DNA of 32,000 bases from an uncultured Chloroflexia bacterium (GCA_963704755.1 OY969938.1:450001-482000), one strand, 5' to 3'; shown: positions 13,593 through 32,000, counted from the stretch's first letter. Notes: generated by a model not told the origin, from the letters alone. Made by a program: numbers and translations.

Positions 13593-13605
13593 AAATCCAA
13601 TGCCT

Positions 13606-15399: not shown

Positions 15400-17633
15400 A
15401 CCTTTTCCTCCGGTGTATGAGTTTCATCAATAATCGGTAAAAGACTTGGGCGCGACACATTTCCGGATGGTCGTGTCATTTTAGGGGCCTGCGGAGATTC
15501 GTCAAGGTCAATCATCTGATTTTGATCAGGATTTGGAATTAATGGGTGCTTTTCACGATCATATCTCTGTTGCTCTAAAGTATTTTGATCTAAGGCCTTA
15601 AGCTGTTGCGCCTTGGGGATATCCTTCCGTGCCGCTTGAGCTTCAATAGATGCTGCTTGAGATATAGCAGCCACTGCGGCGTCTTTAATTACCCGTGCCT
15701 GTGTCTCCTTGGCCTTTAATTCATGAGCTTGCAGATTTTCTAAACGTTTCATCTCCTTTATCTCATCTAGGGTTAAATTTAGATAGCGTTCAAATCCTGG
15801 TCCAAGTTTTAGCGGTGTGTATTTTTTCCCATCCAATTGTATGTAAACAATCGATGGCGTTTTCGGTCGAAATACAACTTTAAATTTTCTACGCTTATCG
15901 GTGAGGGCTAAAATTGCATAACGTTCGTTCAATTCTTTATCATCGCTCAGATAAATCATTTCCTGGAACAACCAGCCCTTCTCCGTATTCGATGCCGTCC
16001 CATTAGGTAACAGATTGAGCATGGCAATATTGCGATCGACCTCATGAAGCAAACAGCCACGATGGGCCACTCCCCAAGCCCATAAATACACTGGTATCGG
16101 CGGAACCTTTTCCGCTATCATTTCCGCAGTGCGGGGATAATTCTCTAGAACGTGATAATTGTTAAAGTAAATGAAAAATAAAAGGGAAATTTTCGTAATT
16201 TCTTCAGGAGTCAGGCTCGCCTCCAACATGCGATTTTTTTCACCTCGTTTATGTGGCCCATCTACTCCCCCAGGTTGATTTTGAAGCTCGATGTTGGCGA
16301 TTTTTAGAAAGGATTCGATAAGTGGTTTCCAGATGGGTGTATAACAAGGATTATTATCAACCCTAATTCCAAGGTTCTTTATGAACTTATTAGACGCTCT
16401 GGTCTTCATCTCCGCATTATCGGCCAAGAATGAAGCGGGTGCCCCCTCGGCTGGCCATTGACTTTCTAAAATAGATATGCCATATTTTTTGCAGAGTTCT
16501 ACCTTATTTTCTAAACAGTTATCGAAGCCGAGCAGCATGGTATCGAAACTAGAAGACTCCGAAGAATTGCAAAACCCACCTACCATACAAGAAAAACTAT
16601 CAAAAAAAACGTAGCAAGTTCTTCGAGATATAATCTTTGCTCTATCGGATGAACTCACCCCATAAAGGTCAATTATTGTAGAGTCCATCGAGTATTGCTC
16701 GCCAGGTGTGTCCACTTGAAGAGTCGCGTACCCTAATTTTGGATGAAAAGTTAAATTGAATTTTCGTTCACCCAATTTATTTTTGAAGAATTTTGCAGGG
16801 TCTTTGCGCCACTCTTTTTTGAAAAAGAAATAAAGCTGATCATATGTCAATCGCTGATTTGCCGGAACCAGTTCAGGTCCGGAACTGCCATGCTCGTCTG
16901 TGATAATGTTTCCCGTTGTGTAATATTTGGCAAGAATTTTTTCATGCACCTTAGTTAAAGGCGTGTCGTCCTTATAATATTTTTCTAAACTCAAGAACAT
17001 AATCATACGCTGTTCTTCTTGGGTATAAATCGGCTCAGCTCGCTTGATATTCGGGTTATTTAATCTGGCTTCGATTTCAGTCAAATTCAGCCTACCAATT
17101 TTTTTCTTAGATCCTTTTTTGTTGTTATGGGGCCTTCCAGGACCACCACAATTTTCGTAATCCGAGGCAATCGCGTCGGGAGTCATACCACCACGCCAAT
17201 ATTTTCGCACGAGACGAAGAATGGTCTTTTTGGAAAGATTGAATACGAGCGCAACATGCAAGATTATTTTCCCCAATTTTTCCTTATCATAAACGTCCGG
17301 ATTCGCCTTCCCGTTCTTATAAAGGACTAAGTCAATGATCTCGTTATTCCTATTTTTGAAATAGGTGTAGGTATCTGTGCGTTCTTCATCACGTGTCAAT
17401 CGACGATTTTCATAAGTCGCGTCTTCTTCTAAAATAATTAGTTTTCCTTCAGCCATTTTGGACTGGATTTCATCAAGCGAATAATTAAAAGCGTCAGGTG
17501 CTGGTTTTTCGGCCATTGGAAATAAAACACAATTCTCCACTCCTACCGACAGAATGCGGAAATCCTTGCCAGTAAAATCACCATCTGCGAAATGGATGAT
17601 CTTACCAATTTTGGGGGTTTTTGAAGATGCCAT
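15396..17633 (-). CDS. tnsB: TnsB-type DDE (Mu/rve-like) transposase
   Basis: An N-terminal HTH (KKTILRLVRKYWRGGMTPDAIA). Acidic triad candidates are YSMDSTIIDL, FLADNAEMK...LGIRV and PIWKPLIESF. It is 745 aa long. Confidence 0.85.
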   Translation of the reverse strand: MASSKTPKIGKIIHFADGDFTGKDFRILSVGVENCVLFPMAEKPAPDAFNYSLDEIQSKMAEGKLIILEEDATYENRRLTRDEERTDTYTYFKNRNNEIIDLVLYKNGKANPDVYDKEKLGKIILHVALVFNLSKKTILRLVRKYWRGGMTPDAIASDYENCGGPGRPHNNKKGSKKKIGRLNLTEIEARLNNPNIKRAEPIYTQEEQRMIMFLSLEKYYKDDTPLTKVHEKILAKYYTTGNIITDEHGSSGPELVPANQRLTYDQLYFFFKKEWRKDPAKFFKNKLGERKFNLTFHPKLGYATLQVDTPGEQYSMDSTIIDLYGVSSSDRAKIISRRTCYVFFDSFSCMVGGFCNSSESSSFDTMLLGFDNCLENKVELCKKYGISILESQWPAEGAPASFLADNAEMKTRASNKFIKNLGIRVDNNPCYTPIWKPLIESFLKIANIELQNQPGGVDGPHKRGEKNRMLEASLTPEEITKISLLFFIYFNNYHVLENYPRTAEMIAEKVPPIPVYLWAWGVAHRGCLLHEVDRNIAMLNLLPNGTASNTEKGWLFQEMIYLSDDKELNERYAILALTDKRRKFKVVFRPKTPSIVYIQLDGKKYTPLKLGPGFERYLNLTLDEIKEMKRLENLQAHELKAKETQARVIKDAAVAAISQAASIEAQAARKDIPKAQQLKALDQNTLEQQRYDREKHPLIPNPDQNQMIDLDESPQAPKMTRPSGNVSRPSLLPIIDETHTPEEKV

Positions 17634-17636
17634 TGC

Positions 17637-17840
17637 TCATTCACCTTTTCGATATGATGGTTGAGTTTTTAAGATCTTGATTGGTTTCGCAGTGTCAAAA
17701 GGCATGGTAAAGTCGTATTGCCATCGTTTTGTAGCGATAAAGTACTGAGCGGCATTGATACTCTTCCCCTTGATCAAACCAAGCAATTGATCACACTCAC
17801 TTGAGCATTCATATAGAGACAATTCACCCTTCATCACCAA
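17637..17840 (-). CDS. tnsA: Probable C-terminal domain of TnsA, displaced into another frame
   Basis: AAQYFIATKRWQYDFTMPFD resembles the TnsA C-terminal winged-helix region. The 212 + 67 aa total approaches the 273 aa of Tn7 TnsA. It overlaps the tnsA ORF by 17 nt in a different frame. Confidence 0.45.
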   Translation of the reverse strand: MVMKGELSLYECSSECDQLLGLIKGKSINAAQYFIATKRWQYDFTMPFDTAKPIKILKTQPSYRKGE

Positions 17841-18462
17841 CGGGGTTAACGTTGAGTAAATTCGCTGAAAATCTTCTTCTGAAATCCCCTTTAAGATGAT
17901 AATACGGCCATAATCTTCTACAGTTTTTCTTTATAACGTCTGGGATCAAGTCAACGATGACCAAGCCCCAATCATAATTTCGTGAAAGATAAAACATCCT
18001 TTCGATCTCCAGATGCTCAAAAACATTCCGCTTTTGTAGACCACTTAAATATTTGACTGACCGAACCACGAATTTTACTTCCCCGTCGGATAGCCGAACC
18101 TTTAAGAGAAAATCTGATGTCATTACTACATTGACCTTCGTATTTTTATCCGCCGGATGCTTAATTCCTAATCCTTTTGCGATGATTTCTGTTGCTTCTC
18201 GAGGCAGTAAAGCTGGTTGTTCTCGAACTTCCTCCACCACTCCTGCTAGGTTATTAATTGCATATACTAGGGTTTCTCCCCAGCTCAATGTTGTTTTAAT
18301 ACCATCTGACAGCGTCCCAGGTGATCTGGACGTAGTTCCAGATGAGGATAAATCGAAGACCTCCAGGTAGGATTGGTAATCTTCACCCTCTCCCTGACCG
18401 CGACCATCCTCTTTTTTCTGCTGGATGTTTTTTTCAGTAGCTCCGTAACGAAACCTTGGCAT
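17824..18462 (-). CDS. tnsA: TnsA-type endonuclease subunit (catalytic domain)
   Basis: Restriction-endonuclease-like pattern: YQSYLE, VMTSDFLLKV...FVVRSVKY and LEIERMFY...WGLVIVDLIP. It lies immediately upstream of tnsB. Confidence 0.7.
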   Translation of the reverse strand: MPRFRYGATEKNIQQKKEDGRGQGEGEDYQSYLEVFDLSSSGTTSRSPGTLSDGIKTTLSWGETLVYAINNLAGVVEEVREQPALLPREATEIIAKGLGIKHPADKNTKVNVVMTSDFLLKVRLSDGEVKFVVRSVKYLSGLQKRNVFEHLEIERMFYLSRNYDWGLVIVDLIPDVIKKNCRRLWPYYHLKGDFRRRFSANLLNVNPVGDEG

Positions 18463-18534
18463 AATTTATTTCTCGGTTATTAAGGATAAACTTCGACACT
18501 TTCAAAACTCCAAGTAATGGAGGTTTATAAAATA

Positions 18535-18756
18535 TTAAAGCGATGACTGCTTTTTAATATGCCCAATTTCATCAATCACAAAAAAGTGAATCCCGTTTTT
18601 GTCCAAGTAACGCCCTAAGATTTGATTTTTTAAATTCTGGGTGTTTTCGCTTGGTTGAGGAAAGCCAACTTCTAAAAACCATTTCAAAATCTGATCTTTA
18701 TATGTGATTTCAAAATCTGGTTGCTCAAATTCACTTCTGCCTACTTTGTCATCCAT
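18535..18756 (-). CDS. Hypothetical small protein upstream of tnsA
   Basis: A 73-aa ORF on the tns strand, 72 nt upstream of tnsA. No motif was recognised. Confidence 0.4.
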   Translation of the reverse strand: MDDKVGRSEFEQPDFEITYKDQILKWFLEVGFPQPSENTQNLKNQILGRYLDKNGIHFFVIDEIGHIKKQSSL

Positions 18757-18795
18757 CGTTACATCCTTTCCTAAGAAAATTCAACAAGAATTAAG

Positions 18796-19203
18796 TTATT
18801 CCGTTCTTACCTTGTTTCTTCTACAAGTGGATGAGCAATAGACCTGATTATTAACCTTTGGGAGAAATGGCCTATTACATCTCCTGCATCGTCGAGAAGC
18901 AAGTTCTAATAATGAGTTAGGTTCGACTAATCCTACCGGCGCCAGTATTTTGATCTTTTCAAGCTTCACACTATTCCCAGCAACTAATTCTGAATAGAGG
19001 TTTGAGATACCATACGCAAGTTTTCCGCTTGGTGTAATCGCCTTACGAGAGACCATGTGCAAGTATTGCCAGGTCCATGTCACACCTGGATTTTCTTCCC
19101 TTAGTGAAGAAGCGATTCTCCGGAAAGTCTCGGCAATTCCCATTTTAGGGTGATGGAAGTGGCTATAGAGAGCGTCCAGTTCCGTTAAAAGTACGTGCCT
19201 CAT
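18796..19203 (-). CDS. Hypothetical protein with a C-terminal zinc ribbon
   Basis: A strong Shine-Dalgarno sequence (GGAGGGA) precedes the ATG. The C-terminus is CRRCNRPF...YCSSTCRRN. Confidence 0.55.
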   Translation of the reverse strand: MRHVLLTELDALYSHFHHPKMGIAETFRRIASSLREENPGVTWTWQYLHMVSRKAITPSGKLAYGISNLYSELVAGNSVKLEKIKILAPVGLVEPNSLLELASRRCRRCNRPFLPKVNNQVYCSSTCRRNKVRTE

Positions 19204-19330
19204 CTATCCCTCCGTCTTTATCACTCTTGGTCAATAAATCCTCTGGCCTCATTTCCGATCATCCTTATAGGTTTCTTATAGCCTTAGAACGCTAATTTCT
19301 TCATGTTCACGATTTCTAAAAGAAATAAAA

Positions 19331-19360
19331 AAACAGTAACAGCATTCACTGTTACTGTTT
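19331..19360 (-). terminator. Rho-independent terminator downstream of the HTH gene
   Basis: AAACAGTAACAG (19331-19342) and CTGTTACTGTTT (19349-19360) form a 12-bp stem with a 6-nt loop. A TTTTTTTATTT run follows on the minus strand. Confidence 0.6.
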
Positions 19361-19408
19361 TACTCGATTGGGAGTTCCCAATGCAATCTCCCGCACTTTC
19401 CCAATTTT

Positions 19409-19732
19409 CTAATAATTTGGGGAGAATCCTTCTTCTAATTGCCTGCGTGTGGGAACTAAATTAGTTTTATAAGCCTTTCGCAATTTTGATAAACGGTTTT
19501 CAATCGTATGTGCTTCAACCTTCTTCTTGGGGGTAGCGATGGCCTCTGCAATCTCATCATCAGACTTTCCCTCCCAAAGAAGCTTAACAATTGCACGGTC
19601 TTTCTCATTGGAAATTATGAGCCACGGTTCTGTTGCGATGTATGAATGTTCGTATCCAAAATGCTTACAAATGTCAAAAATGATCCCTCTGGTAATTCTT
19701 TTTATACGCAAAAATTCGTCATTATTGATCAC
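19409..19732 (-). CDS. LuxR/sigma70-region-4-like HTH protein
   Basis: DRAIVKLLWEGKSDDEIAEAIATPKKKVEAHTIENRLSKLRK. The listed start is GTG. The frame stays open for a further roughly 30 codons upstream with no start codon, and it abuts the stop of the 19824-20141 ORF. Confidence 0.6.
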   Translation of the reverse strand: MINNDEFLRIKRITRGIIFDICKHFGYEHSYIATEPWLIISNEKDRAIVKLLWEGKSDDEIAEAIATPKKKVEAHTIENRLSKLRKAYKTNLVPTRRQLEEGFSPNY

Positions 19733-19823
19733 GACGAGTTTGTCAACTACATCGTCATGTTTTTCGTATGAATGAATGAAATATTTAGGGAACTCATCAA
19801 CTTTTTGTAGATCGGCTATCTCT

Positions 19824-20141
19824 TTAAATTTTAAGATACATTACTCTCGCAGCATCGCCTGTATATTCTTCTTCTGGTGCTTTCACAGGGTCATGGAGAT
19901 TAATGTAAATCTGAGCATCATTTTGTTCACCCGAAAATACATTAATTAAACCTAAATCTTCGCCATTAATAACGATTTGAAAGGAAGCATATTTTGAGGG
20001 AGGTGTTACATCTGGAATTAATTTATTGAAAACGTAGAATGGAAATTCCGATAGCGTCTTGTGATCGTACTCCAAAAATAGCTCGCAAAGATATTTAACA
20101 GTTGAGTCAAAATTTACATTCGCGACTATGGTAGCCTGCAT
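19824..20141 (-). CDS. Hypothetical protein, possibly the N-terminal part of the HTH protein
   Basis: A 105-aa ORF with GGAGA before the ATG. Its stop lies in CTTAAAATTTAAAG, where the downstream frame is already open. Confidence 0.45.
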   Translation of the reverse strand: MQATIVANVNFDSTVKYLCELFLEYDHKTLSEFPFYVFNKLIPDVTPPSKYASFQIVINGEDLGLINVFSGEQNDAQIYINLHDPVKAPEEEYTGDAARVMYLKI

Positions 20142-20250
20142 AGAATCTCCTTCTCAATCTATGTTAGGAATGAAATATAGCACCATGAGGGAACCTAAGT
20201 CAATTTTAAAGCCGCAAGCTTTTGAAAAGTGCTATAATCAATCTCGATTA

Positions 20251-20269
20251 ATGATTAATAATTAATCAT
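20251..20269. promoter_or_regulatory. Palindromic operator ATGATTAAT-A-ATTAATCAT, downstream of an extended -10 element
   Basis: A perfect 9+1+9 palindrome. TGcTATAAT lies at 20230-20238. The half-site recurs at 20600-20609 and 20662-20671. Confidence 0.55.
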
Positions 20270-20283
20270 AAATAGAGGAACGT

Positions 20284-20478
20284 ATGACTGACGCTTTCGA
20301 AACGAGCATTGAATTGCCCTACCCTATCATGTCTGATGTGAAGAAACTGATTGAACTCACTGGGATGACGTCCCAAGAGGTCATCCTTCAGCTTTTGGCG
20401 ATTGCTCTTTCTCAAGAATCTCAAGAGCAATCTTTAATAGTGAAATCACTTCTTGATTTAAAGAACGCCGATGGTTAA
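20284..20478 (+). CDS. Possible ribbon-helix-helix protein
   Basis: SIELPYPIMSDVKKLIELTGMTSQEVILQLLAIAL fits a beta-alpha-alpha RHH layout, and GAGGAA precedes the ATG. It overlaps the convergent RHH gene by 98 nt, so only one of the two may be real. Confidence 0.45.
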   Translation: MTDAFETSIELPYPIMSDVKKLIELTGMTSQEVILQLLAIALSQESQEQSLIVKSLLDLKNADG

Positions 20479-20584
20479 TCGCGTTCGCTTCGATTTTCTC
20501 TTTCATTGGCAGCGGCAAGCGAAGACTAAGGGTATATGTTTCTTCGTCCGGGATCAATTTTCGACGCGGCATCTCATAATCCAT
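20381..20584 (-). CDS. Arc/CopG/MetJ-type ribbon-helix-helix DNA-binding protein
   Basis: TYTLSLRLPLPMKEKIEANAINHRRSLNQEVISLLKIALE is a classic RHH signature. Confidence 0.7.
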   Translation of the reverse strand: MDYEMPRRKLIPDEETYTLSLRLPLPMKEKIEANAINHRRSLNQEVISLLKIALEILEKEQSPKAEG

Positions 20585-20599
20585 CCATCTCGATTTTTA

Positions 20600-20618
20600 A
20601 TTAATCATTATAAATCAT
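20600..20618. promoter_or_regulatory. Operator half-sites in the divergent promoter region
   Basis: ATTAATCATT (the reverse complement of AATGATTAAT) is followed by the related ATAAATCAT. On the minus strand, TATAAT overlaps these sites. Confidence 0.45.
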
Positions 20619-20661
20619 GCTTTCCATAAAGGAAGGAAAATGCCCTTCTTCGGAGGTAATC

Positions 20662-20671
20662 AATGATTAAT
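20662..20671. promoter_or_regulatory. Operator half-site overlapping the start codon of the 127-aa ORF
   Basis: AATGATTAAT spans the ATG at 20663. GGAGG lies at 20652-20656. Confidence 0.45.
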
Positions 20672-21046
20672 GTGGAATGGGAGAAGAATAGTGACCTCCT
20701 CTGTTGGATATTCGAGTCCGTAGTAAAGAATAGAATTGGTAATGATCGGTTGATAGAAGCCCAAAGAGTGTATTACGTGTTAAAAATTATGAATTTGGTC
20801 TGGTTCGAAACAATACCAAATAACTTGACATCCAATTTTGAATTATTTCTAAATTCATCCTGGCCTGGCCGTCCTCCTCTTTGGTTTCATCACCTCGCTG
20901 GTTTGCCAGTTGAATGTCTAGAGCTCATTGCAGGTAAATTGACCAAACCTGATTGGCTTGGAAATTCCTCGATCTCAACATCTATGAAAGTCTCTGGATT
21001 TGGCTATTATCTTGGCTGGAAAAACAAAACCAAAGATTCGATTTAA
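20663..21046 (+). CDS. Hypothetical protein
   Basis: A 127-aa ORF with a good Shine-Dalgarno sequence. No motif was recognised; the sequence is Trp-rich. Confidence 0.5.
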   Translation: MINVEWEKNSDLLCWIFESVVKNRIGNDRLIEAQRVYYVLKIMNLVWFETIPNNLTSNFELFLNSSWPGRPPLWFHHLAGLPVECLELIAGKLTKPDWLGNSSISTSMKVSGFGYYLGWKNKTKDSI

Positions 21047-21059
21047 GGGGTTCCAAAAG

Positions 21060-21293
21060 ATGGATTACGCTGCTTTCATTCAGTCTATAAAAAATATCCT
21101 AAATGAGGAACATCGTGATAAAGGGGAAATCCTCGATTTAATCCTTGAACAGGCTCAGATTTTTATTACAGTGATCGAAACTCAGAAAGCAATGCTCCAA
21201 CAGTTGGAAAGACGGATAAGTTCTATTGAGAACCTGCAAAAAGGCTTGAACGAAAATATCTCTACGCTCGAGGAAAAAATCTCGCGGCTTTAA
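21060..21293 (+). CDS. Hypothetical coiled-coil protein
   Basis: The ATG at 21060 lies behind AAGGGG. Heptad-like sequence: QKAMLQQLERRISSIENLQKGLNENISTLEEKISRL. The track's start at 21000 is an upstream alternative start. Confidence 0.5.
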   Translation: MDYAAFIQSIKNILNEEHRDKGEILDLILEQAQIFITVIETQKAMLQQLERRISSIENLQKGLNENISTLEEKISRL

Positions 21294-21330
21294 AACGCAT
21301 GTGGCTTTCCTGAGATGAATCTGACTAAAT

Positions 21331-21410
21331 TATCCTAAATATCTCAGTTGTAGCGCCTCACGTCTCCATTGAAAGTATAATTAACAAACCGAATAATTAT
21401 TTAAGGATAT
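21331..21410 (+). promoter_or_regulatory. Imperfect inverted repeat bracketing a candidate BREX promoter
   Basis: TATCCTAAAT (21331-21340) faces TATTTAAGGATAT (21398-21410). Between them lie TTGAAA (21369-21374), a 17-nt spacer and AATAAT (21392-21397). TATCCTAAAT also occurs at 21095-21104. Confidence 0.3.
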
Positions 21411-21416
21411 TGCGCT

Positions 21417-22178
21417 TTGATCATTCCTGAATCAAGTGTTCATTTTGGTTTTGTTATTAAAGGCATGGGGGCGCATACAGGGCGAACCATCATGTTTCGT
21501 GAAATCGCAGCTTTGTTCGCTGCCTGCCCAGGCGAAATGTCGATTGATGAATACCGTAACGCCATTATTGAAGAGAATGCGCTGCTAAAACCTACTGCAT
21601 CAGCTCGTGAAGAGAGCTTCCGGCGGCTGAAGCAGCTATACACTTTGGACGCACAGATCGTGGTGTTCCGCTCCCTGCGGATGTTGTGGGAACAAGACCC
21701 TGATCGGCAGCCTCTATTAGCACTGCTGGCAGCCACTGCCCGTGATCCCCTTCTTCGCGCCACAGTTCAAACCGTCATTGATTTACCTGAGAATGAGACG
21801 ATTACTGCCCTGGATTTTGCCCAGGTGATCAATGCGGCCTTCCCTGACCAGCTAACGAAAAACACCCTGGCCAGTGTGGGCCGCAACCTGGCGTCATCCT
21901 GGACTCAATCTGGGCACTTCAGCGGTGAGACGCAGAAGATGCGTAAGCCGGTGCAAGCCAGTCCAGTTGTGACAGCCTTTGCTCTGTTCCTGGCATATCT
22001 TTGCGATTTCCGTGGTGACGCGCTGTTTGATTCTCCCTGGGCACGGCTTTTGGACACCCCGAAACACATTCTGTCCGACCAGGCACAGCAAGCTTCTCAA
22101 CTCGGTTGGCTCGAATTTCGCCGCTCCGGCGCGATTACCGAAATTACTTTCCGTCATTTCTTGAAAGATCAATCATGA
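21417..22178 (+). CDS. brxA: BrxA (DUF1819-like)
   Basis: MFREIAALF...IDEYRNAIIEENALLKPTASAREESFRRLKQLYTL matches my memory of the BrxA family pattern. It is first in the A-B-C-X order. The start is TTG, and its stop overlaps the brxB start as ATGA. Confidence 0.75.
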   Translation: MIIPESSVHFGFVIKGMGAHTGRTIMFREIAALFAACPGEMSIDEYRNAIIEENALLKPTASAREESFRRLKQLYTLDAQIVVFRSLRMLWEQDPDRQPLLALLAATARDPLLRATVQTVIDLPENETITALDFAQVINAAFPDQLTKNTLASVGRNLASSWTQSGHFSGETQKMRKPVQASPVVTAFALFLAYLCDFRGDALFDSPWARLLDTPKHILSDQAQQASQLGWLEFRRSGAITEITFRHFLKDQS

Positions 22179-22732
22179 GCGAAGTCGAAGATTTACTCAA
22201 AGCATACGAAAGCATCGTCCGCTTACCCTGGAGTTCTTCTCTTTCTGGTCAGGAGCGAGTGTGGTTTGTTGTTTACGATCCTGCCCAGGAACGCCGTATC
22301 CGCCTGCGCTTGGGCGAATTTGAGAACATCACCAAAAAGGCCGGACACACCTGGAAAAGCCTGGATCTGACCGATTCGTTTGCGCAATGGATGAGCCAGC
22401 ACAAGTATCGGGATGCTTATTTTGAGGAACCGGAGGCTCTTGCCCCAGCTCTTAATAATTTCACCACCTCGGTTGCGGCCCAAATCAAATCGACCTTGAC
22501 TGCTTCCGATGTGGACAACAATACCGTCGTAGCACTTTCAGGTCTGGCATCGCTGTTTGGATTGACCCGCGTCTCCGTCACACTCGAGAAAGTGATTCCC
22601 GACTTGCGCGGTCGACTCTTAGTGTTCTTTCCCGGACAACACGACGGTTCAAATTACCGATTATTAGATGCACGAGATGGTTGGAATTACCTGGCTGTCC
22701 CGATTACTGCTAAAAAATGGGGAGTTGACTGA
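22175..22732 (+). CDS. brxB: BrxB (DUF1788-like)
   Basis: LLKAYESIVRLPWSSSLSGQERVWFVVYDPAQERRIRLRLGEFE. The real start is taken as the ATG at 22175 (ATGA overlap) rather than the track's start at 22106. Confidence 0.8.
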   Translation: MSEVEDLLKAYESIVRLPWSSSLSGQERVWFVVYDPAQERRIRLRLGEFENITKKAGHTWKSLDLTDSFAQWMSQHKYRDAYFEEPEALAPALNNFTTSVAAQIKSTLTASDVDNNTVVALSGLASLFGLTRVSVTLEKVIPDLRGRLLVFFPGQHDGSNYRLLDARDGWNYLAVPITAKKWGVD

Positions 22733-22734
22733 CT

Positions 22735-25700
22735 ATGAAAAATCGCGAATTATTCCTTGTTGACCCTCTTTCCTTCACCATCCCAAATGATGGGGTTACC
22801 TCGATCTACAATCCCCAAACAGAAAAAGAATGGGAAGTAATCCAGTATGAGCTCAAATCGTTTGTCTGCGAAGGTGAATATCATCGCGGCCTGGAACGCA
22901 TTCTCTCGTCATTTTTAGGAAATCTGGGAAATCCCAAACAACCTGCGGTCTGGGTCAGCGGTTTTTATGGGTCCGGTAAATCGCATCTGGTCAGGGTATT
23001 ACAGTATCTTTGGAATGACGTGGAGCTGCCCAATAAGGCCAGGGCGCGCAGCCTGGTCAATTTGCCTCCAGCCATTAAAGATCTGCTCAAGGAGCTTTCG
23101 ACGCGCGGCACCCAGGCAGGCGGGTTGTGGTCTGCGGCTGGAAAGCTAACCTCTGCATCCAACCAAAGCCTGCGGATCGGCTTGCTTGGGATCCTCTTCC
23201 AATGCGCTGGATTACCCGAACAGTATCATTTAGCCCGTTTCGTGATTTGGATGAAGCGAAATGGCTATTACAACGCTGTTCGAGAATGGATCGAAAAGTC
23301 GGGGGCCTCCTTCGAAGAGGAGTTGGAAAACCTGTATGTTTCCAAGATCGCGACAGGTCTACTGAATGTTTACCCTGGTTTCGCGGCAACTCCCGGGGAA
23401 GCGCGTAAATTGTTGGCGGCAAATTTCCCCCAGAAAGTGGATATCTCGGATGGCGAGTTTCTGGACACGCTCGAGGATGTCTTGGAGCTTCAACAGCAAA
23501 CGCCTGGGAAATTGCCGCTGACTCTGATCATTTTCGACGAGCTGCAACAATTCTTGGGTGAAGATCCGGAACGCACGCTCCAACTGCAAAATGTGGTTGA
23601 AGCCTGTTCTGCCCGCCTCGGGAGCAAGCTGCTTTTTATCGGCACCGGCCAGGCAGCACTGCAAAAAAACACGCAGCTCTCTAAATTAGTCGCACGTTTT
23701 ACCGTCAAGGTTATGCTGGAAGACACGGATGTGGAAACCGTCGTCCGCCAGGTTGTATTGCGGAAAGCAGCCGATAAGGTATCGAATCTCGAGAACGTTT
23801 TGGACTCAAACCAGGCTGAAATCGACCGTCACCTGGTAGGGACGCAAATCGCGCCAGTCGCCCAAGACAATGAAATTATGATCGCCGATTATCCCCTGCT
23901 GCCCACGCGGCGCAGGTTCTGGGAACGCGTCTTGCGCGCGATCGATACGGCTGGCACCGCGGCCCAATTGCGCACCCAGCTCCGGGTGATTCACGAATCC
24001 AACCGGTTGGTAGCCGACCGCCCCTTGGGAACAGTCGTCCCCGCCGATATGATCTATGAGCAGCAGGAATCGAGTATGCTGCAAAACGGCGTTCTTCTCA
24101 AGGAAATCGCGACCATCATCCACTCGCAGGAGAATGGCACGGAAGAAGGGCTACTCAAGAAACGCCTGTGTTCCCTGATTTTCTTGATCGGCAAGCTTCC
24201 CACGGAAGGAGCTGCGATTTCAGGAATTAAATCCAACCCGGATATGTTGGCAGACCTTCTGGTTGAAGATCTATCTAAGGGGAGCACTGCATTACGCCAC
24301 TCGATCCCTGGTTTGTTGGAAGAAATGACTCAACAGGGCATTTTGATGAAGGTGGATGATGAATACCGGCTTCAGACCGCCGAAGGGTCAAAATGGGAAG
24401 AGGATTTCCGCAAACGCTTCATGTCTCTACGCGCCAATGACACCCGGATTGCCAGCGAGCGCGACACAACCCTTCATCAGGCTATCGCCAAACCGCTAAA
24501 GACCATTACGCTAGTCCAAGGGGCCTCAAAAACAGCGCGAAAATCTGATCCTTATTACGGTTCAGACGTGCCGAAGGTTGACGGCAGTACAGTGCCCATA
24601 TGGATCCAGGACGAATGGTCGGTGACTGAAAAATCGGTGCGCGATGCCGCCCAATCGGCCGGAACGGAGAACCCGGTTGTGTTCGTTTTCTTCTCAAAAC
24701 GCGACACGGATGCTCTGCGGGATGGCCTGGCCGCCTCCAATGCCGCCAAAGAGGTACTGGAAACGCGTCCCAACCCAACCACCCCGGAAGGCTTTGAGGC
24801 GCGGCGGGCGATGGAATCGCGGAAAGTCATTGAAGAAAGGAAATTGTCCTCCATCATCGGAGGAATTGTTGAACGAGGCCGCATTTTCCAGGGCGGTGGG
24901 TATGAAATCGTTGATACCTCCTTTACCGACGCGATGAAAACGGCCCTCGAAGCATCTTTGGTGCGGTTATTCCCTAAATTTAACATCGGGGACCACAAAG
25001 ACTGGAAAAAGGTCGTTGATAAAGTGCAGGAAGGTGCCACGGACGCCTTGAAGTTTGTGGGCTATAACGGGAATGCCGATCAACATCCGGTTTGCCAGGA
25101 GATTCGCACCTTCATCGGCGGAGCAGGTAAAAAGGGCAGCGAGATCCGCAAGAAATTCACCGGTGCCGGTTATGGTTGGCCGCAAGACGCGGTTGACAGT
25201 GCCTTGTTGGTGCTGCTAGCAGGCGATTTTCTAAACGCCACTCAGAGCGGGCAACCAAAAGCTTTCAAAACGGTCAACCAAAGCAACATTGGCATCACCG
25301 ATTTCCGGCTACAAGGAATAACGATCACCATCACACAGCGGATTACCCTGCGTGGCTTGCTCAATGATCTCAAAATCCCTTATAAGCCCAACGAAGAAGG
25401 CGAGGCAATTCCGGCTGCCCTTCAGCTTCTCCTGGACCTGGCAAACGAGGCCGGTGGGTTGCCGCCGCTGCCCGAAAAGCCATCCACAATTAAAATCGAT
25501 GATCTGCGCGCCTTGAGCGGAAATGAGCAGTTCGCCGCGGTGGTAGAGGCAAAAGCGGAATTGCTCGGCAATTACAATGCCTGGACCGCGTTGAAAGACA
25601 AGAAATCGTTGCGAGTTCAGCGCTGGAATACCTTCCAACGGCTTAAGCATCACGCTTCCAACCTGGCGCTGGCAGCCGAGCTCAACCTCCAGATAGCCGC

Positions 25701-26187
25701 AATTCAAACCAACCGCAGCCTGTTGGAAGATCCTGACCCGGCGATTCCGCTTTTCAGCCAGCTGGTCGATGTGTTACGCCAGGCATTGCTTGGCGTTAGC
25801 CAGCGTTTCCAGGAAAGCTACACCACTCAGATTGAAAAGCTCAAGCAGAATGATGCTTGGCAGAAGATCAGCGAAGGCCAACGCCAAACCATCTTGATCC
25901 AAACCGACCTGGTAGCTGTCGCCGAGCCCAAAATGGGAACCGATGACGAATTACTGGCTTCATTCGATCGGCAGTCCTTATCCGCCTGGGAAAACAAGAT
26001 CGCAGCCCTCCCTGCGCGCGGCAGCCAGGCTATCCTCCTGGCGATTCAATTGATCACCCCCCAAGCGATCAAGGTAACGCCGAAAACAGCTACCATAACC
26101 TCGATCGAAGATGCAGACGCTTATTGGAAAGAACTGCGTTCAGAGATTAAAAAGCACCTCGATAACGGGAATCCAGTGGTTATTTAG
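22735..26187 (+). CDS. brxC: BrxC/PglY-type P-loop ATPase
   Basis: Walker A is VSGFYGSGKSHLVRVL and Walker B is LTLIIFDELQQF. It is 1150 aa long and lies after brxB. Confidence 0.9.
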   Translation: MKNRELFLVDPLSFTIPNDGVTSIYNPQTEKEWEVIQYELKSFVCEGEYHRGLERILSSFLGNLGNPKQPAVWVSGFYGSGKSHLVRVLQYLWNDVELPNKARARSLVNLPPAIKDLLKELSTRGTQAGGLWSAAGKLTSASNQSLRIGLLGILFQCAGLPEQYHLARFVIWMKRNGYYNAVREWIEKSGASFEEELENLYVSKIATGLLNVYPGFAATPGEARKLLAANFPQKVDISDGEFLDTLEDVLELQQQTPGKLPLTLIIFDELQQFLGEDPERTLQLQNVVEACSARLGSKLLFIGTGQAALQKNTQLSKLVARFTVKVMLEDTDVETVVRQVVLRKAADKVSNLENVLDSNQAEIDRHLVGTQIAPVAQDNEIMIADYPLLPTRRRFWERVLRAIDTAGTAAQLRTQLRVIHESNRLVADRPLGTVVPADMIYEQQESSMLQNGVLLKEIATIIHSQENGTEEGLLKKRLCSLIFLIGKLPTEGAAISGIKSNPDMLADLLVEDLSKGSTALRHSIPGLLEEMTQQGILMKVDDEYRLQTAEGSKWEEDFRKRFMSLRANDTRIASERDTTLHQAIAKPLKTITLVQGASKTARKSDPYYGSDVPKVDGSTVPIWIQDEWSVTEKSVRDAAQSAGTENPVVFVFFSKRDTDALRDGLAASNAAKEVLETRPNPTTPEGFEARRAMESRKVIEERKLSSIIGGIVERGRIFQGGGYEIVDTSFTDAMKTALEASLVRLFPKFNIGDHKDWKKVVDKVQEGATDALKFVGYNGNADQHPVCQEIRTFIGGAGKKGSEIRKKFTGAGYGWPQDAVDSALLVLLAGDFLNATQSGQPKAFKTVNQSNIGITDFRLQGITITITQRITLRGLLNDLKIPYKPNEEGEAIPAALQLLLDLANEAGGLPPLPEKPSTIKIDDLRALSGNEQFAAVVEAKAELLGNYNAWTALKDKKSLRVQRWNTFQRLKHHASNLALAAELNLQIAAIQTNRSLLEDPDPAIPLFSQLVDVLRQALLGVSQRFQESYTTQIEKLKQNDAWQKISEGQRQTILIQTDLVAVAEPKMGTDDELLASFDRQSLSAWENKIAALPARGSQAILLAIQLITPQAIKVTPKTATITSIEDADAYWKELRSEIKKHLDNGNPVVI

Positions 26188-26195
26188 GGGGAGAT

Positions 26196-27542
26196 ATGTC
26201 CGACCTCACTGAACATGATTGGTCTATTCATCAACATGATCATTTGCCCGTGAGATATTCACGACATGAATCCCGATCTTATCTGATCAATCATTTAAGT
26301 TGTCGAAAACTTACAACCCTCACAAATAGACCAAGAAAACCGATGGCAACGGATAAAACATTCCACACAAACGAGGATTTTTGGGGAAGGTTTTTACGAT
26401 CTACCAGGTATTATGGGTTTCAAAATGTCATCTTAAGTGGTTTTCGGATATTTGATTGGTTCCCAAGATCTCCGGGACTATCGTACACACTTGGAGCTGA
26501 CGAGGCATGGGAAAACGCTAGAAATCATTTAGAAGCTGGCTCATCATTTGTTTACACACCAGAAGGGAAAGAGTGGGCGCTCAAAGGCGGCATTGGTAGC
26601 TATCGTTTCAACCCATTCAGTTATCAGGGAACTACTTATTGCCTAGGCACGGCTTCTTCTTCGGAATTTTGCCATTCCGGTATCCCATTGGCCATCCCAA
26701 TGGAATTCATGGAAAACCTGGAATTCCGAGTATCGCACAAAATTGTAGGACACTATCAACCAATTGCTGAACCCATAGCAATATTATTGCCACACAATAG
26801 AGGTATTCCGAAGTTTTATTTTCTTGTTGAGGAAATCGAACGAATCAATCCTTTGGGGTCACCTTCACTTATCACTCCAGTTGTATTGATGCGTAGAGAT
26901 AATGGAGAGGAGCTGGTTTCATATTGTTCTTGTAATCCTGATGATCCCGATGACCTAAATTCGACTAGCGATTGGTTACAGGAATATGCCCACCGTTATG
27001 ATGCTTCGATCATAACTGATTATGATCAGCAAAATCCGGCATTTATCGACTTGCCCTTTAGTCTGCAAAATGTGATGGGCAATAAAATTAGTTATGCATC
27101 GCTCATTGATAATGGATTTTCCCCGAGAGAAGCGATGATTTTGAATGGCATGAGGAGGCCGATTGTGAATAACAAATATGAAGGAAACATCAATTTCGTA
27201 CAAGGAAATAATTCGGGTAACTTAACTGCTGCCACAAATATTTCTAACAGTTTTAATCCCACAACTAACTCTATTCCAGACGAAGCAATGTTGCTGTTTG
27301 AACAGTTAGGAAGTCAAATCGATGCTTTATGCAAGCAACTTTCTACCGATGAAGCGGCTATTGTCAAACAGGATCTTGATGTCGTAGCCAAGGAAGCTGC
27401 CAAAGAGAAACCAAGCAAAAAGATCTTCGAGATAAAGTTTGAATCGCTCAAGAAAGCTGCTGAGAATGTAGCAGAACTGGCAGGACCGATTGCTTTGACC
27501 GCCGGTAAACTCCTCTCCATCCTTCTAACATTAGCAAAATAA
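26196..27542 (+). CDS. Uncharacterised 448-aa protein embedded in the BREX operon
   Basis: The ATG lies behind GGGGGAG. There are 8-nt and 17-nt gaps to brxC and pglX. It is AT-rich relative to both neighbours. No catalytic motif was recognised. It has an Asn-rich linker and a hydrophobic C-terminal tail. Confidence 0.7.
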   Translation: MSDLTEHDWSIHQHDHLPVRYSRHESRSYLINHLSCRKLTTLTNRPRKPMATDKTFHTNEDFWGRFLRSTRYYGFQNVILSGFRIFDWFPRSPGLSYTLGADEAWENARNHLEAGSSFVYTPEGKEWALKGGIGSYRFNPFSYQGTTYCLGTASSSEFCHSGIPLAIPMEFMENLEFRVSHKIVGHYQPIAEPIAILLPHNRGIPKFYFLVEEIERINPLGSPSLITPVVLMRRDNGEELVSYCSCNPDDPDDLNSTSDWLQEYAHRYDASIITDYDQQNPAFIDLPFSLQNVMGNKISYASLIDNGFSPREAMILNGMRRPIVNNKYEGNINFVQGNNSGNLTAATNISNSFNPTTNSIPDEAMLLFEQLGSQIDALCKQLSTDEAAIVKQDLDVVAKEAAKEKPSKKIFEIKFESLKKAAENVAELAGPIALTAGKLLSILLTLAK

Positions 27543-27559
27543 ACTTCCTAGGATATTCC

Positions 27560-30500
27560 GTGCCTTCCTTAAACCCAACTTTGCGCAAGTCCCTCGAAAA
27601 CAAGATTCCCGCTGTCCGCCAGATTGCTGAGGAGGCAGCGCGGGCTGTTTTGAATACGCTGGCCATCAATCGACTGGAGCCTTTTCCAGGGATGACACCC
27701 GAACTGCGCAAGCTGCGCAATGCCCTTCGCGCCAAAGCCCGGCAGCTGGGCGAGGGCAGCCAGACCACCGGTTTCGAGCCGCTCGTGGAAGAGCTAGCCT
27801 ACCAGCAATGGCACCGCATGGTGTTTGCGCGCTTCCTGGCCGAAAATCAACTTTTAATGCACCCCACTGGCGTTTCGGTGACCTTGCAAGAATGTGGCGA
27901 GTTGGCACAGGAAGAGGGCGAAGTTGACGCCTGGGCAGTGGCGTCTAAATACGCAACCATAATGCTTCCAGGCATCTTTCGCCCGAATGACCCCGAAAGC
28001 CAGGTGCGCCTGACCCCGGAAGGTCAGCAGAAGCTTGAAATGGCCCTAAATGATATCGAACAGCCGGTCTTTCTGGCAGATGATGCGTTGGGCTGGATGT
28101 ACCAATTCTGGCAAAAGCTGAAGAAAGATGAAATTAACCGAAGCGAACGGAAGATTGGCGGCGCGGACCTCTCGCCAGTTACGCAATTATTCACCGAAGA
28201 TTACATGGTGTCCTTCCTTTTAGAAAACTCGCTGGGAGCCTGGTGGGCCACCCGCCATCCATCCAGCCCTTTGATCAAAGGCTGGAGATATCTCCGTTTT
28301 AATGATGACGGGAAGCCCGCAGCGGGCAGTTTTCCTGGTTGGCCTGAACTCGCCTCACAGGTGACGATGATGGATCCTTGCTTTGGCAGCGGACACATTC
28401 TGGTGGCGGGGTTCTACATGCTTGCATCAATGCGCATGGAAGAGCAAGGGTTAAATGCAGCCGAGTCTGGAGAGGCTGTACTACGTGATAACCTTTTTGG
28501 GTTAGAACTCGACCCGCGGTGCACCCAAATTGGCGCGTTTGCCTTGACTCTGGCAGCCTGGAAAAGCGGTGGTTACCGTATACTGCCTGTACCAAATCTG
28601 GCTTGCTCGGGCATCCCGGTGCAGGGTCAGCTAGAAACCTGGTTGGTATTGGCCGAGGAGGACACCCGCGTGCGCGCCGGGTTGGAACGCCTCTACAATC
28701 TTTTTAAGGATGCACCGACGCTAGGCAGTCTGATCAACCCGACTAATCTGCCAGCCGCTGATCGAATGTTTGTCGCCGACTACGAACAAATTTCGCCAGT
28801 ATTGGAACAAGCTCTAGACAAAGAACACAATCTCGACAATTCGATCTCCGAAATGTTTGGTGTTGTAGCAAATAGCGTGGGCAAAGCAGCAAAATTACTA
28901 TTGGGAAAATACACACTAACAATTACGAATGTGCCTTATTTAGCAAGAGGAAAACAAGATGAAGTTCTCCAAGATTTTTGCAAAGAATACCACCCATTAG
29001 CAAAGACAGATTTAGCCACCGTTTTTGTCGAAAGATGTCTTGATTTTTGTAATTTAATGGGAACGATTGCAGTTGTTACACCTCAGGGTTGGCTATATCA
29101 ACCCACATATAAAAAATTCCGGGAGTTCATGCTTTCAAATTCGTATTGGGACTTTGTAACCCCCTTAGGTGTTCGTGCCTTCGAAACTATTACCGGAGAA
29201 GTTGTCAATATCGTGTTACTGGTAATATCGTCGAACAAGCCAAAATCACAAAAAAAAATTGCTAGTCTTGATGCATCCTTTAATGATTCGCCTTCATCAA
29301 AAGCAAAATTTCTTGAGGAAGGAGAAGTTATCTGGATTTCCCAACAAAATCAATTACACAATCCCGATGCAAGGATTATTTTAGGCGACTCGTTGAAAGG
29401 TGAACTTCTTCAAAAAATAGCAGCATCTTATCAGGGAATAAAAACGGGTGATGACGGAAGATTCAAAAGAAATTTTTGGGAGTTATCATATTTAGGAGAG
29501 AATTGGCGTTTCTATCAGAGCACTATTAATCAGACAACATATTTTGGTGGAATGGAAAATGTTATAGATTGGCGGGAAAATGGGAAAAACTTGGCTCGGC
29601 TTCAAGGCTTAAAGGCATGGGGAAAACCAGGTATTGCAGTTAGTCAAATGACGGGTTTACCAGTTTCTCTATATACAGGTGAGATATTTGATAGTAATAT
29701 TTCTCCGATAATTCCTCACAAGCAAGAAATGTTAAAAGCACTTTGGGCCTTTTGCTCATCAAAAGAATATAAAGTTGCCGTTAAACAAATTGATAAATCA
29801 TTAAAAGTAACAAACTCAGCATTGATTCAGATCCCATTCGATATAGAACGTTGGCAAAAAGTCGCTAATGAGACTGCACCTATTCCATTGCCCTTTTCGA
29901 ATAATCCCACTCAATGGTTGTTCAATGGGCACCCCCGAAGCTCCACAGCACCACTTCATGTTGCGGTAGCACGGCTTTTGGGGTACCACTGGCCACAACA
30001 AGTAAGCGACTTGCTGGATGATCTCGCGGACGAGGACGGTATCGTCTGCTTGGTCCCTGTTGCTGGAGAACCTTTGCTAGCGGAACGCCTACGCAAAATT
30101 CTAGCAGCAGCCTACAGCAGCGAGTGGTCTCCACGTTTACAAGCAGAATTGCTTTCTACCGCTGGTATGGCGGGCAAATCATTAGAGGATTGGCTGCGGG
30201 ACGATTTCTTCGCCAACCACTGTCGATTATTCCAAAACCGGCCTTTCCTTTGGCAAATCTGGGATGGACGTATCGACGGTTTTTCTGCATTGGTGAATTA
30301 TCACAAGCTCAATGCAGCCCGCCTGGATAAACTAATTTATACATACTTGGGCGATTGGATTCGCTTCCAGCGCGCTCGACGCGATCACGGGGAGCCAGGC
30401 GCTGATGGACGGCTGGTTGCGGCGCTCGAATTGGAGAAAAAACTTAAGCTGATCAAAGATGGCGAACCGCCATACGACATTTATGTGCGTTGGAAGCCGC

Positions 30501-30718
30501 TGGCGCACCAGCCTATAGGCTGGGACCCGGACTTAAATGATGGAGTGCGACTGAATATCCGTCCCTTTGTTAACGCTGGGGTGCTGCGCAGCAAATTTAC
30601 GATCAACTGGAACCAAGATCGTGGTTCAGATCTAGATGGCAGCGAGCGATTGAATGATAAACATTTCAGTATCGCGGAAAAAATGGAAGCGCGGCGGATT
30701 TCTGGAACGCATAGATAA
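27560..30718 (+). CDS. pglX: PglX, the BREX N6-adenine DNA methyltransferase
   Basis: N-terminal AYQQWHRMVFARFLAENQLL, motif I MMDPCFGSGHIL, motif IV ITNVPYL, and C-terminal WDPDLNDGVRLNIRPF. The start is GTG. Confidence 0.9.
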   Translation: MPSLNPTLRKSLENKIPAVRQIAEEAARAVLNTLAINRLEPFPGMTPELRKLRNALRAKARQLGEGSQTTGFEPLVEELAYQQWHRMVFARFLAENQLLMHPTGVSVTLQECGELAQEEGEVDAWAVASKYATIMLPGIFRPNDPESQVRLTPEGQQKLEMALNDIEQPVFLADDALGWMYQFWQKLKKDEINRSERKIGGADLSPVTQLFTEDYMVSFLLENSLGAWWATRHPSSPLIKGWRYLRFNDDGKPAAGSFPGWPELASQVTMMDPCFGSGHILVAGFYMLASMRMEEQGLNAAESGEAVLRDNLFGLELDPRCTQIGAFALTLAAWKSGGYRILPVPNLACSGIPVQGQLETWLVLAEEDTRVRAGLERLYNLFKDAPTLGSLINPTNLPAADRMFVADYEQISPVLEQALDKEHNLDNSISEMFGVVANSVGKAAKLLLGKYTLTITNVPYLARGKQDEVLQDFCKEYHPLAKTDLATVFVERCLDFCNLMGTIAVVTPQGWLYQPTYKKFREFMLSNSYWDFVTPLGVRAFETITGEVVNIVLLVISSNKPKSQKKIASLDASFNDSPSSKAKFLEEGEVIWISQQNQLHNPDARIILGDSLKGELLQKIAASYQGIKTGDDGRFKRNFWELSYLGENWRFYQSTINQTTYFGGMENVIDWRENGKNLARLQGLKAWGKPGIAVSQMTGLPVSLYTGEIFDSNISPIIPHKQEMLKALWAFCSSKEYKVAVKQIDKSLKVTNSALIQIPFDIERWQKVANETAPIPLPFSNNPTQWLFNGHPRSSTAPLHVAVARLLGYHWPQQVSDLLDDLADEDGIVCLVPVAGEPLLAERLRKILAAAYSSEWSPRLQAELLSTAGMAGKSLEDWLRDDFFANHCRLFQNRPFLWQIWDGRIDGFSALVNYHKLNAARLDKLIYTYLGDWIRFQRARRDHGEPGADGRLVAALELEKKLKLIKDGEPPYDIYVRWKPLAHQPIGWDPDLNDGVRLNIRPFVNAGVLRSKFTINWNQDRGSDLDGSERLNDKHFSIAEKMEARRISGTHR

Positions 30719-30752
30719 GGAATTATGAAAAATGACGAATTAATCTTCACAG

Positions 30753-31244
30753 TTGAATCTGCCCATTCCTGAAGATATTAGCGATGAAGACGTTGATATC
30801 AGTGTGCCAGAAGAAAAGCGCAAAATTAATGCAATTCCTTCTGATCAGGAAATTCACTCAATAGTTCATAAATGGCAAAATGGCATTCTGATTCTTCAGC
30901 CGGATTTTCAACGTTATTATGTTTGGGATGAGAAAAAAGCCAGCCGTTTAATCGAATCAGCGCTCTTGTCAGTTCCTTTACCATTGATTTACCTTTCAGA
31001 AGACCCGAATGGTAACTTATCCGTAATTGACGGGCAGCAGCGTTTACACACGTTTATTTCATTTATTCACGGCAAGTATATCCATAACAACAAACCATTT
31101 GTTCTCAAAGACCTACGTGTTTTCAAGGAACTAAATGGACAGTCATTTAAAAATATCCCGGCGGTTTACCAGAATCGTTTGCGATATTTCACCCTCCGTG
31201 TAATTACCATTAAGCAGCGATTCGGATCCTCGCTTGAAGCATGA
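30753..31244 (+). CDS. DUF262 (ParB-like) domain protein, N-terminal part (GmrSD/BrxU-like)
   Basis: LQPDFQRYYVW...LIESALLSVPLPLIYL...IDGQQRLHTF. The listed start is TTG without a Shine-Dalgarno sequence. An ATG with AAGGA at 30725 lies in another frame. Confidence 0.75.
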   Translation: MNLPIPEDISDEDVDISVPEEKRKINAIPSDQEIHSIVHKWQNGILILQPDFQRYYVWDEKKASRLIESALLSVPLPLIYLSEDPNGNLSVIDGQQRLHTFISFIHGKYIHNNKPFVLKDLRVFKELNGQSFKNIPAVYQNRLRYFTLRVITIKQRFGSSLEA

Positions 31245-32000
31245 AATATTCGAACGGCTGAATACGGGCGCAGTTGCTTTGAACAATATGGAATTGCGCA
31301 ATTGTTTAAATCAAGGCCGAATTTTAACCCTTTTGAAAGAACTATCCGCATATCCTCCATTCAGAGAATTGTTAGGCCTGCAAGATGCCGATCCACGTAT
31401 GCGTGATGTTGAACTCGTTCTGCGTTTTTCCGCCTTTTATCATCATGGGTATACTGGCTATAGCAGCCCGATGAAAAAGTTTCTGAATGATGAGATGGAA
31501 ACTTATCAGAACATTACCGAACAGGATGCGGTTGCATTAAAGAAGAAATTCAAAATAACAGTGACGATAATCAAATCATTATTTGGAGAAAACGCATTCC
31601 ATCGGTATGTTGCCGGAAAAGTCGGTTCTATTGACGGTAACTGGGAGACAAAAACCTTTAACGCGGCACTTTATGACGTTTATATGAACGTTTTCAGTAA
31701 TAAAGATCGTAATCAGGTCCAAAAGTCGGCAGATTTAATCCGAGAATCGATAATCGACCTGATGTCAAACAATCAGGATTTCATTGATGCGATCCTTCTT
31801 GCCACCAGTAATACAGATCGAGTAAAAAAGCGCTTCTCTTTAATGTATCAACTGACCGATAATATCCTGGCAAAGAAACCAAAACAAGCGCGCCTGTTTT
31901 CTTATGAAATCAAAAAGCAATTATTTGATGCCAATCCTGTGTGCGAAATATGCAGTCAACAGATTTTTTCGATTGATGATGCTGCTGTAGATCACATTGA
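31204..32000 (+). CDS. Continuation of the DUF262 protein in the +1 frame, with a C-terminal HNH/His-Me finger. The 3' end is outside the window.
   Basis: My own translation gives KHEIFERLNTGAVALNNMELRNC..., the canonical DUF262 continuation. It ends with CEICSQQIFSIDDAAVDHI at the window edge. The frame is open from 31204. Confidence 0.75.

Follow-up and report, generated by a model that had tools for sequence, protein, structure and literature searches.

The 32,000-nucleotide stretch of DNA analyzed here (the window) comes from an uncultured Chloroflexia bacterium (GCA_963704755.1, OY969938.1:450001-482000), whose genome is assembled as one contig of 4.87 Mb with a G+C content (GC) of 54.8%. 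It carries genes of a bacteriophage exclusion (BREX) operon, which with the order brxA-brxB-brxC-pglX-pglZ-brxL is complete for a type 1 system. Three of its core genes lie upstream of pglX on the plus strand, namely, brxA (21417-22178; PADLOC BrxA, 274 bits), brxB (22106-22732; PADLOC BrxB, 247 bits), and brxC (22735-26187; PADLOC BrxC, 1344 bits), whereas pglZ (2093-4447 of L001; PADLOC PglZ, 896 bits) and brxL (4451-6496 of L001; PADLOC BrxL, 968 bits) lie downstream, past the window. The GC of brxA, brxB, and brxC is 0.50-0.53, and all the BREX core genes have a GC of 50-57%, near the genome mean. The subject of this analysis is the pglX (brxX) gene, an open frame of 1052 amino acids (aa) at 27560-30718 on the plus strand. 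Its GTG start agrees with the N-terminal consensus of the family, MPxLxxxLR; it matches the PADLOC PglX profile PDLC02528 over its full length (1356 bits, residues 3-1048) and the Pfam models Eco57I and N6_Mtase, and it is predicted to encode the N6-adenine methyltransferase and specificity factor of the type 1 BREX system.

The composition of pglX changes abruptly in its middle. In windows of 200 nucleotides (nt), GC is 0.50-0.62 up to about 28780, 0.355-0.405 at 28800-29900, and 0.50-0.54 thereafter. The initial annotation had pointed to an AT-rich block here from G+C counts of six 60-nt lines, all of which proved exact on recounting (43, 33, 24, 20, 23, and 34); the sliding plot reproduces its drop at about 28800-29900, and the reading frame is indeed continuous from 27560 to 30718. 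A two-breakpoint likelihood fit to third codon positions placed the low-GC block at aa 409-776 (nt 28784-29887; log-likelihood gain of 40), with support ranges of aa 394-444 for the left edge and aa 770-807 for the right edge. With these edges, the gene is divided into a 5′ scaffold (aa 1-408; 27560-28783, plus strand), which has a GC of 55.6% and a third-position GC (GC3) of 0.61; a central part, here termed the exchange cassette (28784-29887, plus strand), with a GC of 37.2%; and a 3′ scaffold (aa 777-1052; 29888-30718, plus strand) with values of 51.4% and 0.51. GC3 is 0.285 within the block and 0.571 outside it, and the corresponding values for codon positions 1 and 2 (GC1/GC2) are 0.465/0.360 and 0.62/0.43. 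Amino acid composition was rejected as a cause of the dip because positions 1 and 2 fall much less than position 3: the GC3 difference of 0.27 far exceeds the GC1+2 difference of 0.11 (the family means being 0.16 and 0.04).

When the same change-point scan was run on all 172 open reading frames (ORFs) of at least 800 aa in the genome, pglX ranked third overall and first among genes with internal dips (median gain, 5.9; 95th percentile, 20). Scores as large as that of pglX were obtained for two long ORFs of 2400 and 1955 aa in another low-GC region (genome positions 2441356-2448555 and 2472329-2478193), both with internal rises in GC3 (0.65-0.67 versus 0.43-0.46); these may also be mosaic genes. 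In a genome with a GC of 54.8%, the GC-rich parts of pglX thus have a composition like that of the host, and the AT-rich block resembles the mobile DNA of about 40% GC that surrounds the BREX genes. The codon-usage distance of the cassette is 0.162 to the AT-rich genes of this island and 0.210 to the BREX core, which, on these small samples, suggests that its codon usage is closer to that of the island genes.

The edges of the block can be placed on the domain plan of characterized PglX/BrxX proteins. The 5′ scaffold comprises an N-terminal helical domain and the S-adenosylmethionine-binding half of the methyltransferase domain, and it aligns to BrxX residues 170-372. Motif I (DPCFGSG, aa 272), which is invariant in the family alignment, lies in it and hence outside the block. 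Motif IV, which is of the NPPY type and reads ITNVPYL (aa 455-461; 28922-28942, plus strand), lies within the block, where the initial annotation had placed it; T456, N457, V458, P459, and L461 are invariant in an alignment of 32 sequences. Both motifs align to those of BrxX, with motif IV opposite ANPPYM, and their order, I then IV, is the pattern of the gamma-class N6-adenine methyltransferases. The 3′ scaffold consists of spacer helices and a C-terminal domain, with residues 873-1003 aligning to BrxX 1057-1187. Across the middle of the protein, residues 364-562 align to BrxX 425-613, and a profile alignment maps profile positions 360-763 to residues 422-848 of Salmonella PglX. In Escherichia coli BrxX, the methyltransferase domain spans residues 211-650, with a BrxX-specific insert at 390-500, the NPPY motif at 508-511, and the base-reading loop at 587-601, and the target recognition domain (TRD) spans residues 651-837 (PMC11842806, PMC11341690); the TRD of Salmonella PglX corresponds to residues 662-849 (PMC11341690). 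From the alignments to these domain limits, it follows that the cassette begins within the insert, some 50 aa ahead of motif IV, and that its right edge coincides with the end of the TRD. By alignment, it comprises the end of the insert, motif IV, and what remains of the catalytic domain, with the equivalent of the base-reading loop, followed by the hinge and the entire TRD; by homology, it would hold all the elements known to take part in reading the 6-bp BREX site. In an AlphaFold2 model of the protein (mean predicted local distance difference test score, 78.5), the left boundary falls within a helical hairpin modeled with low confidence (aa 405-448), immediately ahead of the strand leading to NVPY, and the right boundary falls in the loop after helix 762-771. 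The top six matches of this model in a Foldseek search of the PDB were all PglX/BrxX proteins (E = 6e-38 to 2e-33), with template modeling scores of 0.40-0.47, limited by hinge flexibility.

The cassette and its flanks differ in their relatives. The closest PglX is P0003, encoded on the metagenomic contig L003 in an operon with the same gene order, the other core products of which are 84% (BrxA), 94% (BrxB), 89% (BrxC), 87% (PglZ), and 96% (BrxL) identical to those studied here. P0003 is 87% identical to the studied protein over aa 1-412 and 80% identical over aa 781-1052, which gives 85% for the flanks as a whole, but only 37% identical over aa 413-780. Measured in 30-aa windows, identity falls from 0.8-1.0 outside aa ~406-800 to 0.2-0.5 within this range, such that the break in homology and the GC3 boundaries fall together. 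When the cassette alone was searched against 5.8 billion protein clusters, the best match was 52% identical (P0093 and P0014). The top cassette matches, P0093, P0014, P0010, and P0022 (about 50-52% for P0093, P0014, and P0022), are not the top flank matches, and in P0014, P0010, and P0022, the sampled proteins with the best cassette matches, the flanks share about 65-69% identity with those of the studied pglX. In the tree of the flanks, the studied pglX and P0003 are sisters with a support of 100, whereas in the tree of the cassette, the former groups with P0022, P0093, and P0074 (support, 95) and the latter with P0007, P0016, and P0019. By the approximately unbiased (AU) test, the flank data reject the cassette clade (p = 2e-34), and the cassette data reject a clade of the studied pglX and P0003 (p = 0.026). 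The initial annotation had suggested a recombinational swap of the catalytic and specificity module, to be checked by segment-wise searches and separate phylogenies; the drop in identity, the discordant relatives, and the significant conflict between the trees all favor it. Moreover, P0007, P0016, and P0019 belong to the flank clade of P0003, because of which the P0003 cassette looks resident and the studied cassette looks imported. With moderate confidence, the branch on which the replacement occurred would be that of this genome and not that of L003.

A separate irregularity was observed in the 5′ scaffold. At 10760-11040 of L003 (aa ~256-345 of its pglX), GC3 is 0.87-0.97, versus 0.40-0.57 at 28325-28595 of the window, and the two genes are only 0.73-0.93 identical over this part of the otherwise conserved scaffold. 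Around motif I, one of the two lineages may carry another mosaic patch, smaller than the cassette.

The same pattern recurs across the PglX family. In a comparison of 198 near-full-length homologues, flank identity and cassette identity are weakly correlated (r = 0.28): many pairs have flanks that are 90-95% identical and cassettes that are 40-50% identical, and 25 pairs have cassettes that are 74-93% identical and flanks that are 53-70% identical. The cassette is the least conserved part of the protein, with a mean identity to the homologues of 44%, as against 66-69% for the flanks. Breakpoints were fitted in 70 pairs whose flanks resemble each other but whose cassettes do not. The left ones gather at aa 380-420 or 460-500 (median, aa 414) and the right ones at aa 757-784 (median, aa 772), and the edges of the studied pglX fall in the same clusters. 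One pair of homologues, P0151 and P0189, has a nucleotide identity of 0.91-0.97 over aa ~398-797 and of 0.55-0.65 elsewhere, and the common block has a lower GC3 in both genes; at the DNA level, this pair provides direct evidence of the movement of such cassettes between divergent pglX genes. In the 32-sequence alignment, invariant stretches lie at both boundaries, G389-S390-L391 and T456-L461 on the left and F760-D761-W765...P776...S780-P783-Q785-F788 on the right, and the studied cassette keeps every column that is invariant in the 32 homologues. We infer that these stretches could serve as crossover sites.

Based on these observations, we propose, with a probability of roughly 0.8, that pglX is a mosaic in which the cassette was replaced by recombination between the scaffold parts of one BREX lineage. 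Under this proposal, the two GC-rich scaffold parts would belong to a single lineage, of which L003 is the closest sampled member, and the 1.1-kb cassette (aa ~409-776), with its much lower synonymous-site GC, would have a separate ancestry. The likely route is a recombinational replacement with crossovers in the conserved stretches bordering the cassette, the left one in LGSLINP or TNVPYL and the right one in PFD..W...P...S..P.QW.F. The expected outcome would be a new BREX recognition motif, and by analogy with the published PglX/BrxX structures, the recognized motif has probably changed; the parts presumed to contact other BREX proteins would stay unchanged.

Several observations weigh against this proposal or temper it. 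No donor was found: the best cassette match remains that of 52% among the 5.8 billion protein clusters, a tblastn search of plasmids with the cassette gave at best 43%, and viral contigs gave no match. Hence, of the earlier suggestion of a swap from another BREX system, the replacement is supported, and the donor, in the form of a near-identical copy of the cassette in another scaffold, was not found in these searches. At the nucleotide level, the left boundary relative to L003 is gradual and not sharp, so that exact crossover points are not visible in that comparison. The trees were obtained by "quick" searches, and the AU test on the cassette data is moderately strong; the pair statistics for the family use related sequences, in which pairs are not independent events. 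Finally, the dip itself is widespread, with block GC3 below that of the flanks in 79 of 81 homologous loci from many phyla, such that part of the low GC could be intrinsic to the region rather than a foreign mark.

The last of these points bears on the alternative that best survives, namely, that there was no swap and that the specificity region diverged in place under diversifying selection, drifting to AT through weaker constraint or because less recombination with relatives would entail less GC-biased gene conversion. The pglX of L003 has a cassette unrelated in detail and yet dips at the matching place (GC of 0.36-0.38; GC3 of 0.32 versus 0.60-0.72), and at none of the 81 loci is the GC of the block above that of the flanks. 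The GC3 difference across these loci has a mean of 0.159 and a maximum of 0.44, as against a mean of 0.039 for GC1+2, and the dip of the studied gene, at 0.27, is in the top eighth of the family and unexceptional. Along the gene, the mean deviation in GC3 stays near 0 as far as aa 375, amounts to -0.09 over aa 401-475, lies between -0.17 and -0.24 over aa 576-725 (a trough seen in 72-78 of the 81 loci), and is again close to 0 past aa 875. Since nearly every homologue dips, we consider the dip a property of the exchangeable cassette of the family and not the mark of a single event; the family-wide trough could reflect either an AT-richer import pool or an intrinsic bias. The initial annotation had set against its own suggestion an ancestral dip shared by the same nearest homologues in every segment; the dip is indeed common to the nearest homologue and to nearly all others, but the nearest homologues differ between segments. 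The centering of the trough on the TRD, the low conservation of the cassette throughout the family, and the gradual boundary relative to L003 are all in keeping with divergence in place, which may contribute to the family-wide trough. However, such divergence cannot account for a cassette that is more similar to proteins with distant flanks (52%) than to its counterpart in the sister operon (37%), nor can it yield significantly conflicting trees. Relatives carry near-identical cassettes in divergent scaffolds at the DNA level, and a box-edged halving of GC3 is hard to attain by drift while the flanks stay at 0.5-0.6. As the full explanation of the studied gene, therefore, we regard divergence in place as unlikely.

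Another alternative is that the cassette is one allele of a locus subject to programmed inversion of the shufflon type. Such switching is documented in Lacticaseibacillus rhamnosus and Brevibacterium casei, where silent partial copies swap the middle of PglX (PMC9881135), and the variable unit looks alike, with the same logic of a variable middle between constant N and C termini. Those loci, however, switch within the cell by means of silent copies, inverted repeats, and an invertase, whereas the studied locus has a single copy and neither repeats nor an invertase: there is no second or partial pglX copy in the 4.87-Mb genome, no recombinase or invertase gene in the operon, and inverted repeats at or within the cassette are only at chance level (the longest being 23 nt with 83% complementarity), as are the short matches found in a search for direct or inverted repeats flanking it. 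Programmed inversion is thus very improbable here, and the studied exchange is presumably a fixed replacement on an evolutionary scale, from another genome. An equally improbable alternative, a chimeric join of two pglX genes during the assembly of metagenome-derived reads, might be suggested by the 5% marker contamination of the genome and the abrupt change in composition, but the frame runs unbroken, no family-invariant residue is lost, and the breakpoints lie at the places that are canonical for the family. The architecture and the dip recur in the nearest relative, which was assembled independently, and the genome is a single contig.

Returning to replacement by recombination, the family-wide data raise a broader possibility, to which we give slightly less than even credence: PglX specificity cassettes may circulate horizontally as a pool whose evolution is partly independent of that of the scaffolds, with a unit running from motif IV to the TRD and with AT enrichment at synonymous sites as the footprint of circulation. 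In such a case, the natural unit of exchange would be this whole stretch and not the TRD alone, bounded on the left by LGSLINP or TNVPYL and on the right by PFD..W, and within one gene the cassette would behave as accessory DNA and the scaffold as core DNA.

The surroundings of pglX are also variable. The slot between brxC and pglX holds an AT-rich cargo gene of 448 aa (26196-27542, plus strand; GC of 41%), and the corresponding slot of L003 holds a gene for a VWA protein (8172-9980), likewise AT-rich. Between pglX and pglZ lies an AT-rich GmrSD/NsnA-like gene (30753-32000, plus strand), with matches to Pfam GmrSD_N and PADLOC NsnA in both halves; in L003, this slot (13210-16640) encodes an AAA_15/21 ATPase, a 167-aa ORF, and a GmrSD_N-HNH protein. 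The GmrSD/NsnA-like gene consists of two overlapping ORFs, 30753-31244 and 31234-32091, the second of which runs into L001; they cover positions 32-169 and 175-383 of the NsnA model, and the split is a frameshift or a sequencing error near 31234-31244. The content of the two slots turns over along with the pglX cassette, while the core genes are 84-96% identical.

On a larger scale, the BREX operon sits in a tract of about 60 kb with a GC of about 40% (genome positions 444-504 kb), which holds Tn7-like tnsA, tnsC, and tnsD genes. In the window, these are a TnsA-like gene (17824-18462), a 745-aa ORF in the TnsB position without a Pfam match (15396-17633), a TnsC/TniB-type AAA gene (13606-15399), a TnsD gene (11852-13207), and a second TnsD/TniQ gene split in two ORFs (10771-11667 and 9786-10739), all on the minus strand. 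Upstream of them, in the AT-rich tract, are genes for a 589-aa N6_N4 DNA methylase (1273-3042) and a 1311-aa protein with weak matches to nSTAND NTPases (5637-9572), which are probably further defense cargo. The whole low-GC tract may represent an accretion of Tn7-like elements of the attTn7 type around the BREX operon. An Rfam scan of 18000-32000 gave no match. Among 60 relatives from the same genus, family, or order, no close pglX was found (best identity, 30-36%), which indicates that the BREX operon was itself horizontally acquired; since these relatives do not have an orthologous BREX operon, the swap cannot be dated within the lineage.

The studied protein can be compared with the structurally characterized PglX/BrxX proteins of Salmonella D23580 and E. 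coli HS (PDB 8C45, 8Q56, 9EWZ, and 8ZEK), which are the best structural matches of its model (E = 6e-38). They share the operon type and a four-part build, with an N-terminal domain, a gamma-class N6-adenine methyltransferase domain, a TRD, and a C-terminal domain, and just as Salmonella has PARIS between its BREX genes, the studied operon has extra defense genes between its own. They differ in that the Salmonella and E. coli proteins are only about 18% identical over the structure alignment to the studied pglX product, which at 1052 aa is about 150-170 aa shorter (versus 1205-1225 aa), and in motif IV, which is NVPY here, invariant in its own family, versus NPPY in BrxX. The subfamily of the studied protein is found mainly in Chloroflexota-type metagenomes.

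Exchange of recognition modules is well known in other modification systems: in type I HsdS, type IIG/IIL (MmeI family), and type III Mod proteins, shuffling of TRDs or domains alters the specificity of methylation and restriction. As in the case studied here, their genes combine a conserved scaffold, replaceable recognition modules, and a discordant ancestry of segments. The studied pglX is accordingly a clear example of known specificity shuffling and not of a new mechanism. In contrast to HsdS, MmeI-family, and Mod genes, the exchange unit of the PglX family is mostly larger than the TRD; it starts about 50 aa ahead of motif IV and so takes the catalytic half of the methyltransferase domain along with the TRD. 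A second mode of left breakpoints lies just after motif IV, at aa 460-500. Three details may be new: the documentation of a natural, fixed PglX mosaic together with its breakpoints; the usual inclusion, in the exchange unit, of the catalytic half of the methyltransferase domain that bears motif IV; and the near-universal AT enrichment of the cassette at synonymous sites.

BREX tells self from foreign DNA through one protein, PglX, whose 6-bp motif sets which phages are stopped, and engineered changes in the PglX TRD alter this motif. Attempts to transfer a loop alone between the E. coli and Escherichia fergusonii BrxX proteins resulted in loss of defense (PMC11842806). The studied locus and its relatives would show how BREX is retargeted in nature, namely, by replacing a 1.1-kb cassette between conserved scaffold parts. 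A GC dip inside pglX is the rule in the family and by itself is no evidence of a recent event; the recurring natural breakpoints, here at about aa 409 and 776, could guide the design of chimeras. If PglX cassettes do circulate as a pool, the conserved breakpoints would amount to natural design rules for the retargeting of BREX, and GC3 troughs could be used to find exchangeable specificity modules in other defense genes.

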